Source: a virus (Duplodnaviria > Caudoviricetes). From it: DNA of 64,000 nucleotides. Shown piece after piece: positions 4,955 through 40,905 of this stretch. The notes under the pieces are model-generated. The model was not told where the DNA came from, made no database searches, and was given only the letters and a program-made list of their open reading frames with translations. The position numbers and the translations under genes were made by a program. Position 1 is the first letter of the stretch; each line of letters begins with the position of its first letter. The DNA is taken from IMG/VR virus record IMGVR_UViG_3300008116_000002. One strand, written 5' to 3'.

Positions 4955-5212
4955 ATGACTTGGTGGAAAGTAGAAACAACCAGTAAGAAATCGGTTGAGG
5001 AGATTATGTACTTCAATCTCAATGACTGGCAAATAACATATATCACAGGATATCGTTGGGGTACTATTCTTGTCGAGTCTGATGAGAAGCCAGAATTTCA
5101 TCTGGACGAGAATGATGGTGTTGATATGTATTCTACAGGCTATGATTATGAATTGGATTCGTTGGATGATGGTTGGTTCTCAGATATACGACTGAGATCA
5201 TCAAGTTTATAA
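4955..5212 (+). CDS. hypothetical acidic protein
   Basis: ORF in operon. Confidence 0.6.
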   Translation: MTWWKVETTSKKSVEEIMYFNLNDWQITYITGYRWGTILVESDEKPEFHLDENDGVDMYSTGYDYELDSLDDGWFSDIRLRSSSL

Positions 5213-24449: not shown

Positions 24450-24929
24450 ATGAGCCTAGTTGATTACGCAGAAAAAGAATTAGATCGTATTGGCATGACC
24501 GATGAAGATGAATATAATGGTATGATGCGTAAGCATTTGTTACATATGGTAAAAGAGTTTGGAGATGAAGGTCATTCTGGATTCTCTGCTGGCTATGCGA
24601 TTCAATGTCTGAAGAAACTATTTAATTTTAAACCATTGTCACCGCTAACGGGTGAAGATGATGAATGGGCAGATATTGGCGGAAACTTATTTCAGAATAA
24701 GCGATGCTCCTCAATATTTAAAGACGCAACCGGAGATGCGTATGATATTGACGGTAGAGTGTTCTGGGAATGGTATACTGATAAGGAGACAGGAGAAAAA
24801 TATAAATCCTATTACACCTGCTATGAATCAAGATTACCTGTAACTTTCCCCTATGTTGTACCTGACGAACGTATTGAAGAATATCGTAAATCTGATTCAG
24901 AGCCACCATCGCCACCACATACTGAATAA
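24450..24929 (+). CDS. conserved hypothetical protein (GHSGFSA family)
   Basis: EGHSGFSA...PLTGEDDEW. Confidence 0.7.
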   Translation: MSLVDYAEKELDRIGMTDEDEYNGMMRKHLLHMVKEFGDEGHSGFSAGYAIQCLKKLFNFKPLSPLTGEDDEWADIGGNLFQNKRCSSIFKDATGDAYDIDGRVFWEWYTDKETGEKYKSYYTCYESRLPVTFPYVVPDERIEEYRKSDSEPPSPPHTE

Positions 24930-35519: not shown

Positions 35520-35548
35520 TTGACTTTTATTTGAAACTATATTATACT
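35520..35548 (+). promoter_or_regulatory. sigma70-type promoter
   Basis: TTGACT-17-TATACT. Confidence 0.75.
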
Positions 35549-35553
35549 ATGAT

Positions 35554-36210
35554 ATGTTTACACATATAGATCAATCAAATTTACCAAAATTAAAACGAGT
35601 CACTAATGACGATGGTTCTCGTTTATACGAAACGCCCACCGGCGAAAAATATCCTTCGGTTACTACAATAACAGGACTCCTAAAAAGAGATATAATTTTA
35701 GAATGGCGCAAAAGAGTAGGTGATCAAGAAGCCAACAAAATTAGTTCAACCGCGGCAAGACGAGGAACTAGAATTCACACCCTATGTGAAAAATATCTAA
35801 GTAACGAAGAAATCAATCCCACTATTTTTGATTCTCAAAATTGGAATGAACTTAAAGAATATCTAGATAAGATAAACAATATTCATGTTTTAGAAAAGCC
35901 TTTATTTTCTCATCATCTTCAGATTGCAGGTACCGTTGACTGCATCGCAGAATATAACGGTAAGCTTGCAGTTATAGATTTTAAAACATCTAAACGAAAT
36001 AAAACTAAAGAAGATATCCATGATTACTTTATGCAATGCTCTGCATATTCTGTAGCATACGAGGAAATGACAGGAATACCTGTACCGAATATTCTAATAC
36101 TAATTTCAACAGATGAATATGGTGTTCTTCCTTTTGCGGAGAAAAGAGATGCATGGATTTCAGAATTTATTAAACTTAGAGAAAAATATAGACAAATACA
36201 TAAAATTTAG
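35554..36210 (+). CDS. PD-(D/E)xK exonuclease
   Basis: YPSVTTI, RGTRIH, AGTVDC, IDFKTS, YFMQCSAY. Confidence 0.88.
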   Translation: MFTHIDQSNLPKLKRVTNDDGSRLYETPTGEKYPSVTTITGLLKRDIILEWRKRVGDQEANKISSTAARRGTRIHTLCEKYLSNEEINPTIFDSQNWNELKEYLDKINNIHVLEKPLFSHHLQIAGTVDCIAEYNGKLAVIDFKTSKRNKTKEDIHDYFMQCSAYSVAYEEMTGIPVPNILILISTDEYGVLPFAEKRDAWISEFIKLREKYRQIHKI

Positions 36211-36221
36211 ATTTCGTAATT

Positions 36222-36512
36222 ATGTTCACTGATGCTTATATTTTTCTTAAAAATGACTATAAATCTTTTCCTCTTAGATTTATAGTTGAGACAACATGTT
36301 GGATAGCTGTAGTTATTAATACTATACTAATTACAATCTACGTACCGAATGTGCCCTGGTTGATTTGCTATCCAATTTGGATTGTTGCTTGTATATTTGG
36401 TATGTGGACTTCCTATACTAGAGGATATTCTGTAGGCATTATGAGCTGTGCTGTTTATGCAATAATTGACGCAATAGGACTATATAGATATTTAGCAGTA
36501 ACTAGTATTTGA
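36222..36512 (+). CDS. small multi-pass membrane protein
   Basis: Three hydrophobic segments. Confidence 0.7.
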   Translation: MFTDAYIFLKNDYKSFPLRFIVETTCWIAVVINTILITIYVPNVPWLICYPIWIVACIFGMWTSYTRGYSVGIMSCAVYAIIDAIGLYRYLAVTSI

Positions 36513-36830
36513 ATTGTTGTAACTCCTTCAAAGTGAAGGCATTCTGGACGGCGGTTCAATTCCGCCCACCTCCACCATAAGCATTCTAAACTGGCCGCAG
36601 GATCGGAGAAGGTTGAAAGCGGATTAGCTACCGCAAAGTAAACTGGAGATCAAGAATGCTTTTGATGGGGGTGACCTGGTTTCGACAGGGTGAGATAGCA
36701 GAGACGGCAACACGTCAGGCGATCGACGTTAATGAAGCAAATATAGTAATCGCAAACGACGAGTACTACGCATTAGCAGCCTAAACGCTGCTTAGGGTTC
36801 GGTGGGTTCCTCGTAACAGAATACCCACCA
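36510..36830 (+). ncRNA. ssrA: circularly permuted (two-piece) tmRNA
   Basis: Acceptor piece first (T-arm GGCGG-TTCAATT-CCGCC, CACCTCC-A-CCA ending 36577). The 5' piece GGGGGTG starts 36667, pairs with a G3-U wobble, and carries tag ANDEYYALAA* at 36752-36784. The 5' boundary is approximate. Confidence 0.92.
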
Positions 36831-36848
36831 TTTTAAAAAGGATAATAT

Positions 36849-37451
36849 ATGTCTTTTAAAACTGAATTATATGAAGTAGTAAAAAATGCTGTGCCAGAAG
36901 AACTTCTTAAGTTTGTCAATATGGAATTAGAATTATTGAAGAAGGTTAATTATCTATCCAACGGGGTAGATGAATCCAATACTACTTTCTTTCAGGACGA
37001 TCAATGTAAAAATTCTTTTCCGTGGTATAGTGCTTTTTGTACAGAAACACTTGGTCTATACCTACAGCCAAAAATAGAAGAAGTCACAGGTAAAACTCTT
37101 TATCCAACTTATACCTATATGAGGCTTTACTACACTGGTTCAGATATGGCAAGGCATACTGATAGACCAAGTTGTGAGTATTCTGCAACCATTTGTATAT
37201 CTAATGACCCTGAACCTTGGGAAATTTATTTTGAGAACTTAAAGGGCAAGGAGAAGGCAATTTATTTACAGCCTGGTGATATGATCGTTTATAAAGGTGA
37301 TATATTACCTCATTGGAGAAACGAATATAAGGGCAACAGACAAGCGCAGGTATTCACACACTTTGTAGATGCTAACGGTAAATATAGAGATTATATTTAC
37401 GATCGCAGACCATACTTAGGTTTTCCTTCAAACCCTAGAAACACTAGATAA
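36849..37451 (+). CDS. 2OG-Fe(II) oxygenase
   Basis: RHTDRPSCEYS (HxD), PHWR distal His, QVFTH. Confidence 0.85.
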   Translation: MSFKTELYEVVKNAVPEELLKFVNMELELLKKVNYLSNGVDESNTTFFQDDQCKNSFPWYSAFCTETLGLYLQPKIEEVTGKTLYPTYTYMRLYYTGSDMARHTDRPSCEYSATICISNDPEPWEIYFENLKGKEKAIYLQPGDMIVYKGDILPHWRNEYKGNRQAQVFTHFVDANGKYRDYIYDRRPYLGFPSNPRNTR

Positions 37452-37452
37452 T

Positions 37453-37986
37453 ATGAGCACACTAAAAGAACTGACTTGGGAAAAACATAAAGAAGCGGAA
37501 GACCAACCCTTTATAAAATCTATTTTTAAAGGCCAAGTTGATAAGGATCAGTATACAGATTATCTCTATCAGCTTAGGATTTTATATACGAAATTAGAAA
37601 TTCTTGGCGATGGTTTAGGTATCTTCGATGGGATGGAAGATCTAAAAAGAGCTAAAGCTATTACTTTAGATTATGCAGAACTTGCGAACGGACATACTCA
37701 GTTCCATGTTATTCGCAATTCTACTTTAGATTATTTAGATTATCTTAATACTATTCAAGATAACAAAGACAAAGTAATGGCACACATCTATGTTCGTCAT
37801 ACCGGAGATCTATTCGGAGGACAAGCCTTAGCTAAACTTTTACCTGGGCCCAATAATATGTTTAAGTTTGAAGACATACCTAATCTGGTACAAAAGATTC
37901 GTTCTAAAATTGATGTATCGATGGCACCTGAAGCTAACAGAGCTTTTGATTTTAATATTAGCATGATCAAAGAATATAATGTCTGA
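37453..37986 (+). CDS. heme oxygenase (HemO/Ho1-like)
   Basis: LKELTWEKHKEAE (proximal His), HIYVRHTGDLFGGQ. Confidence 0.88.
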   Translation: MSTLKELTWEKHKEAEDQPFIKSIFKGQVDKDQYTDYLYQLRILYTKLEILGDGLGIFDGMEDLKRAKAITLDYAELANGHTQFHVIRNSTLDYLDYLNTIQDNKDKVMAHIYVRHTGDLFGGQALAKLLPGPNNMFKFEDIPNLVQKIRSKIDVSMAPEANRAFDFNISMIKEYNV

Positions 37987-38665
37987 TACATTTGAGGTTT
38001 GGCCTAGAGCCAGAGAGTTAGCAGATAAGATTATATCTCGTTTTAATTCTTATGAGCGAGAGGATATTAATCCTGAGTATGAGATACACGTAGATAATTT
38101 TACGTGGAAAAATTACTTATGGAAGTCTGAAAAATTTAAAAGAGCTCACATAGAAATTGTAGACGCCTCTGAAACTAAAAAGATGTGGGTTATGCATATG
38201 TGCATTTATCCTCATTATAATTCTTCTGATCCAATATTTGGTTTTGATATTGTCTGCGGTAAAAATAAAATTACTGGGGCTTTTCACGATTTCTCTTTTA
38301 TTGGATTATCTGATCTTTATAATTGGTTTCAAGGAACCATGCTAAATGTTAAATGGTCTAAACCAAGAGATCTTCCTGATTGGGCAAAGAAGATCTTTAG
38401 TCCAGCAATGCTAGCAGCAGGAAACATTCAAACCGAAGAAGAGTTTAATCAATTGGAAAAAGTCGTTATAGACAATCTTGATTATTACCTTTATAATGTA
38501 GGTAAAGTAGTAACAGGTTCTGATTTTTCTTCGAGGCATGATCATTATTGTAAGAATCAGAAATTAAACCCACACACTCCTGCCATGATGGAAACTTTTG
38601 GTGTTGATAAACAGGTTTTTGCGAAATTTATGGACGAAGTTTTATTCCCAGAGAAACATGGATAA
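37979..38665 (+). CDS. ferredoxin-dependent bilin reductase (PcyX/PcyA/PebS family)
   Basis: HMCIYP...PIFGFDIV...AFHDFS, YCKNQKLNPHT; overlaps the heme oxygenase gene. Confidence 0.85.
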   Translation: MSDTFEVWPRARELADKIISRFNSYEREDINPEYEIHVDNFTWKNYLWKSEKFKRAHIEIVDASETKKMWVMHMCIYPHYNSSDPIFGFDIVCGKNKITGAFHDFSFIGLSDLYNWFQGTMLNVKWSKPRDLPDWAKKIFSPAMLAAGNIQTEEEFNQLEKVVIDNLDYYLYNVGKVVTGSDFSSRHDHYCKNQKLNPHTPAMMETFGVDKQVFAKFMDEVLFPEKHG

Positions 38666-38924
38666 AGAAATAGAATACATTTTAACAGACAGTTTAATTA
38701 TAACCAAAAAATTTAGATCACCCAATGAGTTTTCTTTACATATTGAAGAGAGGGTTTTGAGAGAAAAAATAGGATATATGGATGCGGTTATTCAATATTG
38801 TGAGGAAGTAGATATAGATATTGAATCCATATCTAAATTAATTAATCAGTCTCTAAAAGATAAAATACAGAATGAGGCTGAAGAAAATAACTTTATGAAA
38901 CGTAGAGGAAAATTGCCCCTGTGA
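38658..38924 (+). CDS. 33: late transcription coactivator gp33
   Basis: FSLHIEE...YMDAVIQYCEE...LKDKIQNEA; position before gp59. Confidence 0.85.
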   Translation: MDKEIEYILTDSLIITKKFRSPNEFSLHIEERVLREKIGYMDAVIQYCEEVDIDIESISKLINQSLKDKIQNEAEENNFMKRRGKLPL

Positions 38925-39532
38925 TTATGGATGAGTTCTCAGTGTATAAAATGTATATTGCTTTAAAGCTGCATTTTACTACAGATAATTATGATATAAC
39001 TAAAAGAAACGGAAAGGTGAGAGCTAGTAGAGATGCCTTTAATAAAAGAAAAGATCTTTTCTCTATAAGAAAAATAGCTAAGTCTTATTCCGATGAGGAA
39101 GTTGCTAATTTTTTAATTTCAAATTTTGTATCAGGTAATCGTTGGGGTGGGGTATTTGATTCTGATGCGGGGAAAACATACCTTGAATGGAAAGGTAAGA
39201 TGGAAAGCCTTTCCTACATATTTACTAATGAACTAGATAATCTGATAATGGAGTTGGAATCTCAAAAAATTAGTTTAGCTGATTCCTTTCAGATCACAAA
39301 AGCCCAGCATCCATATATATTGAAGGCTTATTTGAGAAATACTATATCTCTGGAAACTCTAACTATCATAGAAAAGGTTATGCCTTTTGTAGAAACTTTT
39401 GATAGTAAATTATCTGCAGATTTAGTATGGCCGGATGTTTCTAGACTTATTAAAAAGTATAAACCATTTTTAAAAATTGACAAAGAAAAGTACAATGGAA
39501 TATTCGAATCAAGATGTGGAACTGGATATTAA
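38921..39532 (+). CDS. 59: helicase loader gp59
   Basis: YKMYIALKLHFT..YD, F.KRKD, HPYIL, SLETL. Confidence 0.88.
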   Translation: MIMDEFSVYKMYIALKLHFTTDNYDITKRNGKVRASRDAFNKRKDLFSIRKIAKSYSDEEVANFLISNFVSGNRWGGVFDSDAGKTYLEWKGKMESLSYIFTNELDNLIMELESQKISLADSFQITKAQHPYILKAYLRNTISLETLTIIEKVMPFVETFDSKLSADLVWPDVSRLIKKYKPFLKIDKEKYNGIFESRCGTGY

Positions 39533-39978: not shown

Positions 39979-40905
39979 ATGGCATTTCAGTCATTATCTG
40001 ATTTAAGAAAATCTCGTGGCGGTTTCGACAAACTAATGAAGGAAGTCGAAAAGATTGCAAGCCCACAAGGAGAATCAAGAGCTGACGATCGCTTCTGGCA
40101 ACCAGAGGTAGACAAGGCAGGTAACGGTTACGCTGTTATTCGATTCTTAGCCCCACCTAAAGGAGAAGAACTACCCTGGGTTCGTATTTGGAATCATGGT
40201 TTCCAAGGACCTACAGGAAAGTGGTATATTGAAAATTCTCTTACTACACTAAATAAAACAGATCCCGTTTCAGAATATAATACTGAATTGTGGAACTCTG
40301 GGTCTGAAGCGAATAAGGAAATTGCTCGTAAGCAAAAGCGTAAGCTAACTTATATCGCAAATATTATGATTGTCAAGGATCCTGCTCATCCAGAGAACGA
40401 AGGTAAAGTATTTCTTTACAAGTTCGGTAAGAAGATCTGGGATAAGATTAAAGATCTAGCAGATCCACAATTTGAAGACGAGAAGCCAATCAATGTATTT
40501 GACTTCTGGGAAGGGGCAAACTTCAAATTGAAGATTCGTAATGTAGAAGGCTATCGTAATTACGATAAGTCTGAATTTGAATCGCCTAGTGCTTTATCTG
40601 AAGATGATTCTGCAATTGAGGAAATTTGGGGTAAGCAATACTCGTTACTTCAGTTCCTCGATGAAAAGAATTTTAAATCCTATGACGAATTGAAGAAGAA
40701 ATTCGATATGGTTATGGGACTTGCAGGTGGCACTATTTCTACTAAGAAAGCTGAAGATACTTACTTAGATGAGGAATTCGAATCTGCTCCAAAGGTACAA
40801 GCAACTGCTGCGCCTAAGCAGGTTGAAAAGGCACCTAAGAAGGAAGTAGACTTTGACGACGATGATGAGTCTTTGTCCTACTTCGCTAAATTAGCTGAAG
40901 ATTAA
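39979..40905 (+). CDS. 32: single-stranded DNA-binding protein gp32
   Basis: DDRFW, GYAVIRFL, WYIENSLTT, YKFGKKI, GANFKLK, acidic tail ...SYFAKLAED. Confidence 0.95.
   Translation: MAFQSLSDLRKSRGGFDKLMKEVEKIASPQGESRADDRFWQPEVDKAGNGYAVIRFLAPPKGEELPWVRIWNHGFQGPTGKWYIENSLTTLNKTDPVSEYNTELWNSGSEANKEIARKQKRKLTYIANIMIVKDPAHPENEGKVFLYKFGKKIWDKIKDLADPQFEDEKPINVFDFWEGANFKLKIRNVEGYRNYDKSEFESPSALSEDDSAIEEIWGKQYSLLQFLDEKNFKSYDELKKKFDMVMGLAGGTISTKKAEDTYLDEEFESAPKVQATAAPKQVEKAPKKEVDFDDDDESLSYFAKLAED

Follow-up and report, generated by a model that had tools for sequence, protein, structure and literature searches.

The locus lies in a 64,000-nt window (the whole stretch of viral DNA that was analyzed) that has a GC content of ~36%, is coding mostly on one strand, and contains T4-type genes, specifically those for gp32, gp59, gp33, DNA ligase, and gp5/gp6/gp25/gp48-type baseplate proteins. 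Proteins of the window were 35-57% identical to those of the nearest deposited phages, HTVC008M, Melnitz, Mosig, and marine cyanomyoviruses, and megablast returned no near-identical deposited phage at the DNA level. Metagenomes of freshwater and lakes, generated in many studies, contained the DNA of the window, with 91-100% of sampled words recovered. The window is a T4-like myovirus from freshwater. Additionally, a 159-codon ORF at 24450-24929 (+) matched Pfam PF25185, the Type I Thoeris inhibitor Tad3 (E = 1.8e-40), and is probably a phage anti-defence gene.

The locus begins with a PD-(D/E)XK exonuclease gene (35554..36210, +; PHROG 298, E = 1.4e-70), an upstream neighbor that is conserved in Melnitz, HTVC008M, and most IMG/VR relatives. 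It is followed by a 96-codon ORF (36222..36512, +, from the ORF list) that ends 3 nt before the tmRNA gene; this ORF had no PHROG or Pfam match, and a weak relative of it was present at a few loci. The interval between the tmRNA and gp33 holds three inserted genes, namely a 200-codon ORF (PHROG 2954) and, at 37453-38665 (+), genes for a heme oxygenase (PF01126) and for a bilin reductase that is ferredoxin-dependent (PF05996); no photosystem genes were seen in the window. The conserved landmarks downstream of the tmRNA slot are the late-transcription coactivator gp33 (38598-38924, +; Pfam PF16805), the ORF of which overlaps the end of the bilin reductase by 68 nt, the helicase loader gp59 (38921-39532, +), and the single-stranded DNA-binding protein gp32 (39979-40905, +), with PHROGs 269 and 224 covering gp59/gp32. 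Ahead of the nuclease is a candidate sigma-70-like promoter, TTGACT-17-TATACT (35520..35548, +; 10/12 matches in a consensus scan), which may drive a transcript that spans the nuclease, the small ORF, and the tmRNA; the count of sigma-70-like sites in the region was not above that in shuffled sequences, and the site is thus given as a candidate only. Two promoter-like sites directly upstream of the tmRNA (TTGACG-17-TATTTA at 36466 and TAGTAT at 36503) fell below the scan criteria and were set aside, and a consensus scan of the region found no terminator. In the IMG/VR contig with the closest tmRNA relative (L005), two TATAAAT motifs sit directly upstream of the tmRNA at ~5090-5145; these resemble T4 late promoters, and the window has none in that place.

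A circularly permuted, two-piece tmRNA with the tag ANDEYYALAA had originally been predicted at 36510-36830, and every detail of that prediction could be read directly from the sequence. ARAGORN, which had been proposed as a check, made a single gene call across the window: a permuted tmRNA with the same tag. Permuted-model searches agreed, with both Rfam families above their curated thresholds: RF01850 (beta_tmRNA) matched at 178.5 bits (E = 1e-55; cut-off 84) over all model positions 1-331, and RF04321 (tmRNA_permuted) matched full-length at 155.2 bits (cut-off 47). The parts are in permuted order, with the 5′ acceptor strand and tag frame located downstream of the T-arm, 3′ acceptor strand, and CCA.

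All parts of the gene are on the plus strand. The 63-nt acceptor piece (36515..36577), delimited by the Rfam alignment and by covariation in 47 homologues, comprises the outer P2 strand (36515-19), a middle P2 segment (36525-39) that can pair either locally, as a CCUUC/GAAGG hairpin, or across the two pieces, the P2a strand (36540-46), the T-arm (36550-66; GGCGG-UUCAAUU-CCGCC, a GGCGG/CCGCC stem with a canonical T-loop), the 3′ acceptor strand CACCTCC (36567-73), and, at the 3′ end, the discriminator A (36574) and an encoded CCA (36575-77). Next comes an 89-nt spacer (36578..36666), which maturation would remove and in which the minimum free energy (MFE) fold places a 9-bp stem (36579-87 with 36654-62) that prolongs the acceptor stem. 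The coding piece (36667..36834), delimited by Rfam, covariation, and the MFE fold, then opens with the 5′ acceptor strand (36667-73, G3 being 36669) and the D-loop-like CUGGUUUCGA (36674-85), continues with the 3′ strands of P2a (36686-92) and P2 (36703-12) and the first hairpin of PK1 (36713-28), and, beyond the start of the tag frame, has one hairpin around the stop codon (36776-91) and a further one, the 3′ hairpin (36801-29), after which comes AUUUU. The D-loop-like segment CUGGUUUCGAC is an exact match to the Rfam model consensus. As predicted, GGGGGTG (36667-73) and CACCTCC form seven acceptor pairs, the third of which is the G36669·U36571 alanine determinant, and the halves are further joined by CATTCTG (36540-46) with CAGGGTG (36686-92) and by TGTTG (36515-19) with CAACA (36708-12). 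The locus is hence confirmed as a real phage-encoded, circularly permuted two-piece tmRNA gene.

Related loci were common among uncultured phages. With the nuclease as bait, 20 of the best 80 IMG/VR relatives had a permuted tmRNA just downstream, and Rfam assigned five of 14 syntenic loci scanned to the beta class and nine to the alpha class. The acceptor-piece motif, used as the sole bait, recovered at least 119 viral contigs from IMG/VR, and among the motif matches listed (119 viral contigs) 103 had a permuted tmRNA, making this number at least 103. Nearly all of the 119 listed loci had the order nuclease-tmRNA-gp33/gp59/gp32 and a GC content of 0.32-0.44; because of this low GC and these neighbors, the contigs are taken as T4-like phages and not bacterial fragments. 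In more than 100 T4-like contigs of IMG/VR, the tmRNA at this site is beta-like. Among deposited sequences, in contrast to these, blastn against 50,697 phage records found no match in T4-like phages to either the window tmRNA or the beta-like tmRNA of L092, and the sole matches were to a 47-77-nt acceptor part in Mendera-like phages of Stenotrophomonas. In this latter group, which includes the phages Mendera, Moby, YB07, IME-SM1, and others, the acceptor part of a permuted tmRNA is 82% identical over 77 nt to that of the aquatic phage family (for example, MN098328.1 68060-68136), and many of the records carry no annotation there.

Folding without any model gave the T-arm, the acceptor stem, the 9-bp spacer stem, the stop-codon hairpin, and the 3′ hairpin. 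The stability of the fold was far beyond chance: the z-score was -3.1 over the entire gene and -4.5 over the acceptor/spacer part, and none of the shuffled sequences matched it. The original prediction would have been undermined by cross-piece helices that did not covary, and in an alignment of 47 homologues these helices did covary. Pairs in P2a and outer P2 were canonical in 96-100% of cases, and double compensatory changes were seen at no fewer than five of them, including 36540-92 (U-A 23, C-G 18, A-U 5) and 36541-91 (G-C 22, A-U 20, C-G 5) in P2a, and all 5/5 pairs of outer P2 covaried. In the acceptor stem, 7/7 pairs were 100% canonical; the G·U pair was invariant (47/47), and two others covaried, for instance 36569-36671 (U-A 26, C-G 12, G-C 8). 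The T-stem was close to or fully canonical and covaried at three pairs, and the first hairpin of PK1 (36713-28) was both present and covarying across the same 47 homologues. One candidate for the second PK1 stem (36719-23 with 36749-53) was rejected, as it had no covariation and was disrupted in most homologues.

Other elements could be followed in smaller or larger sets. For the P2 middle, the local hairpin and the cross-piece alternative were both fully compatible with the sequences of a 23-member clade. In 23/23 close relatives the 3′ hairpin was kept; its stem sequences are unrelated among them, and its loop is conserved. An apparent lack of pairing of the spacer stem and of this hairpin in MAFFT columns was an alignment artefact, and per-sequence folding paired both. 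Within 36793-36811, a conserved AGGG (GGGG in relatives) upstream of the 3′ hairpin could pair with the conserved loop-start UCCU/CCUU and would make a pseudoknot, for which covariation is uninformative because both sides are invariant. Among 100 unique phage homologues the acceptor stem closed in 99, and spacers had a median length of 71 nt (range 3-237), beside which the 89 nt of the window is typical. The window spacer (36578-36666) contains no ORF; a few IMG/VR tmRNAs (L086, L116, L104/L185, and L166) have spacers of 138-175 nt that hold ORFs of 40-50 codons.

ARAGORN placed the tag frame at 36752..36784 (+), as had been predicted: it opens at the alanine resume codon GCA, translates as ANDEYYALAA, and closes with an ALAA-type degradation signal before the stop codon TAA. 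Across 65 homologues with ten-codon tags, several synonymous codons were used at each of the Asn, Asp, Glu, Phe/Tyr, Leu, and Ala positions, for example AAC/AAT 50/13 for Asn and GAT/GAC 42/19 for Asp, with five codons at Leu8 and four at Ala10. Read at the codon level, synonymous codons at conserved residues show the tag to be under coding constraint. The tag strings had no match in a literature search.

These patterns bear on what the RNA does. That the gene is a non-functional remnant, such as an attachment-site fragment, a pseudogene, or an assembly chimera, might be imagined, given that tmRNA genes are often integration sites and that fragments of them occur in prophages (PMC9004378). We regard this as extremely improbable: both halves are complete, the compensatory changes and the synonymous changes in the tag show continuing selection, the arrangement has been assembled independently in more than 100 contigs and many metagenomes, and its context is a lytic T4-like phage. 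An RNA that serves chiefly to manipulate host trans-translation, by competing for SmpB or by substituting the host tag, has somewhat more to recommend it but is still unlikely. A minimal RNA with a tRNA-like domain from mycobacteriophage DS6A inhibits tmRNA (PMC4131195), tagging of host proteins has been proposed as an alternative role (PMC9004378), and phage tags are more varied than one host would require. Against such a role, the gene appears to keep all elements of a complete tmRNA, and its tag retains the canonical ALAA end under coding constraint, as would be expected of ordinary tagging and degradation more than of a decoy.

We therefore consider it highly probable that the locus is the functional ssrA of a freshwater T4-like myovirus, encoding a two-piece tmRNA of the Rfam beta_tmRNA class. 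From the layout of the gene we infer its processing, alanine charging, use of SmpB, and benefit to the phage. One precursor transcript, probably including the upstream nuclease and small ORF, would be made, with the spacer-closing stem keeping the halves in register. Host tRNA-processing enzymes would cut this precursor, with RNase P generating G36667 as the 5′ terminus and trimming from the 3′ side halting at the encoded CCA (36577), such that the products would be the 63-nt acceptor piece and a coding piece of ~165 nt, kept together by the 7-bp acceptor stem and P2 helices. The G·U at position 3 would direct alanine charging by the host alanyl-tRNA synthetase, and the RNA, assisted by SmpB and EF-Tu of the host, would be taken into ribosomes that had stalled on broken mRNAs. 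There, translation would restart at GCA (36752) and append ANDEYYALAA, the LAA end of which would mark the protein for degradation. No SmpB gene was found among ten window ORFs scanned against Pfam, so the RNA would rely on the SmpB of the host. The likely benefit to the phage is that the scarce ribosomes of its host would be kept free while host mRNA is destroyed.

Two freshwater metatranscriptomes from different studies contained contigs 100% identical to the locus. The contig from run X25 spans 36667-36817, and its first base is the predicted mature 5′ end of the coding piece, while that from run X20 (36587-36760) includes most of the spacer and part of the coding piece and would resemble a precursor or intermediate; both are assembled contigs, by which ends are not proven and for which DNA carry-over is possible. 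For run X20, the sampled words of a 3-kb stretch lay without exception inside the tmRNA. An RNA contig from run X19 covers 36221-36400, in the upstream 96-codon ORF, and in a fourth run the acceptor piece of a relative was joined to its own upstream sequence. No weight is given to the lack of RNA contigs over 36401-36510 and 36818-37100, nor to the small shares of words that other RNA runs contained. We count these data as a weak to moderate hint of expression, and as a first, weak sign that such a phage tmRNA is present as RNA in lakes with the expected 5′ end.

We also considered the origins of the gene. The original prediction had allowed that the permuted architecture was either host-derived or an independent permutation. 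A separate permutation event is disfavoured because the gene fits the beta model over its full 331 positions, with the spacer at the same place as in the betaproteobacterial model. The other branch of that prediction, when taken as a recent capture of a host ssrA, for example via a temperate intermediate, from a betaproteobacterium such as a member of the Methylophilaceae, would account for the very high score of the betaproteobacterial model and for the genomic GC of OM43/LD28, which resembles the ~36% of the phage. On this view, the class of the tmRNA would reveal the host. The OM43 host is also on the beta/gamma branch of two-piece tmRNAs (PMC9004378). Nevertheless, the P2 signature of the phage clade occurred in just two of 185,579 bacterial species-representative genomes, both times on short MAG contigs with phage-like genes, and the slot is conserved across phages whose flanking proteins share only 30-60% identity. 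Moreover, Melnitz infects OM43 but has an alpha-class gene, and the syntenic relatives are a mixture in both T-loop type and Rfam class. Together, the rarity of the signature, these mixed T-loops and classes, and the uncoupling of the tmRNA from the adjacent nuclease described below make recent host capture very unlikely.

The two MAG contigs with a phage-clade tmRNA, L202 (CAZCDW010000126.1) and L203 (CALMJT010000228.1), were binned as 'Bifidobacterium' and 'Alteromonadales', respectively. Each bin had its own tmRNA of another kind, the 'Alteromonadales' contig also has an endolysin, and the two are probably mis-binned phage DNA; an inference of hosts from these bins was discarded since the contigs look like such DNA. 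Beta-class comparators from bacteria were likewise sought, and 0/151 genomes in the class of G001 were over the cut-off, the MAG contig itself excepted. One pattern match in 401 genomes of the phylum turned out to be a one-piece tmRNA, and the pattern was present in 0/81 genomes in the order of the genome that carries it.

Mixing of characters was evident in individual relatives, such as L031, which scored as beta_tmRNA yet has an alpha-type T-loop (GGGGCAGTACC), and L020 and L023, which scored as alpha_tmRNA yet have a canonical T-loop. Distances between tmRNAs were nearly independent of those between the adjacent nucleases (Mantel r = 0.10; 50/999 permutations as high). Specifically, L012 and L020 have nucleases that are 1% apart and tmRNAs that are 33% apart, with different T-loops and the tags ANDNVAFAGYALAA and ANDNVAFALAA, as though the tmRNA had been replaced while the rest of the background stayed nearly the same. 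Conversely, L087 and L129 have tmRNAs 3% apart and nucleases 56% apart. This near-uncoupling of the tmRNA from its neighbor suggests cassette exchange. We tentatively propose, as a possibility with rather less than even chances, that the slot between the nuclease and gp33 is a tmRNA cassette site, at which alpha-like, beta-like, and mixed genes are swapped independently of their flanks from a phage pool largely absent from bacterial chromosomes. If this cassette reading is true, then tmRNA class is a poor pointer to the host, the argument made for a host transition of Melnitz is weakened, and phages could have carried permuted tmRNA genes between bacterial classes.

General knowledge of tmRNA is unchanged by this finding. 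New is the beta-class version, which is widespread among uncultured T4-like phages of freshwater and aquatic origin and absent, by blastn, from deposited T4-like genomes. The apparent mobility of the cassette cautions against inferring phage hosts, or past host switches, from tmRNA class. A culturable member of the group would allow investment in ribosome rescue by phages of slow-growing aquatic bacteria to be tested.

With respect to published systems, the premise of the original prediction, by which the familiar tmRNAs of phages are one-piece, is outdated because surveys already count permuted forms in phages. In one, 402 of 18,146 phage genomes carried a tmRNA, with 133 unique sequences (Buchholz et al. 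2022, PMC9004378), and 53 phage tmRNAs, mostly from aquatic phages, were permuted according to ARAGORN, including those of Melnitz, HTVC008M, Mosig, S-CRM01, S-SSM7, S-CAM1/3, and the phiCbK group (PMC9004378). A 2025 tmRNA database lists 79 unique phage tmRNAs (PMC11915505). Phage two-piece tmRNAs, also in the same T4-like slot, are thus already published.

The closest named comparisons are Melnitz, HTVC008M, and Mosig, which, like the window, are T4-like aquatic myoviruses (Kyanoviridae-type) with a permuted tmRNA in this slot. The proteins that flank the gene share 36-57% identity between these phages and the window. In Melnitz, an OM43 myophage with a two-piece tmRNA (Buchholz et al. 2022, PMC9004378), the annotated ssrA is preceded by a PD-(D/E)XK nuclease with two small ORFs and followed by gp33, gp59, and gp32, a slot like that in the window, and the gene order around the tmRNA of HTVC008M is the same as in Melnitz. 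The genes themselves differ: those of Melnitz (106.7 bits) and HTVC008M (83.8 bits) score as alpha_tmRNA and have an alpha-type T-loop and longer tags, whereas the window gene is beta (178.5 bits) with a canonical T-loop and a ten-residue tag. Melnitz also has a glutamine riboswitch after the tmRNA, and Rfam found none in the window. S-CRM01 (74 bits) and S-SSM7 (109 bits) are T4-like phages with two-piece tmRNAs as well, but of the cyano_tmRNA class and at genome positions unlike the window slot, the S-CRM01 gene being beside tRNA genes. Phage ssrA genes of the mycobacteriophage Bxz1 group and Bacillus phage G are in standard order and not permuted (PMC4131195).

Among bacterial systems, the two-piece tmRNA of Caulobacter has the same general architecture as that of the window and is of the alpha class. 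Its function was reportedly shown by Keiler, Shapiro and Williams in 2000 (as cited in PMC9004378), and to our knowledge no other two-piece form has been shown functional. The betaproteobacterial two-piece tmRNA (Sharkady and Williams 2004, as cited in PMC9004378) was compared with the window through its Rfam model (RF01850). The window differs from this model in having a longer spacer (78 unaligned nt in the Rfam alignment versus 16 in the consensus), in being without the last hairpin of the model, and in the P2 middle, a clade-specific sequence that the search of 185,579 species genomes found in no bacterial chromosome. The window gene resembles the betaproteobacterial form in that it matches the model in full length, piece order, spacer position, and P2 layout, and shares with it an ANDE-type tag ending in ALAA and a conserved hairpin after the tag.
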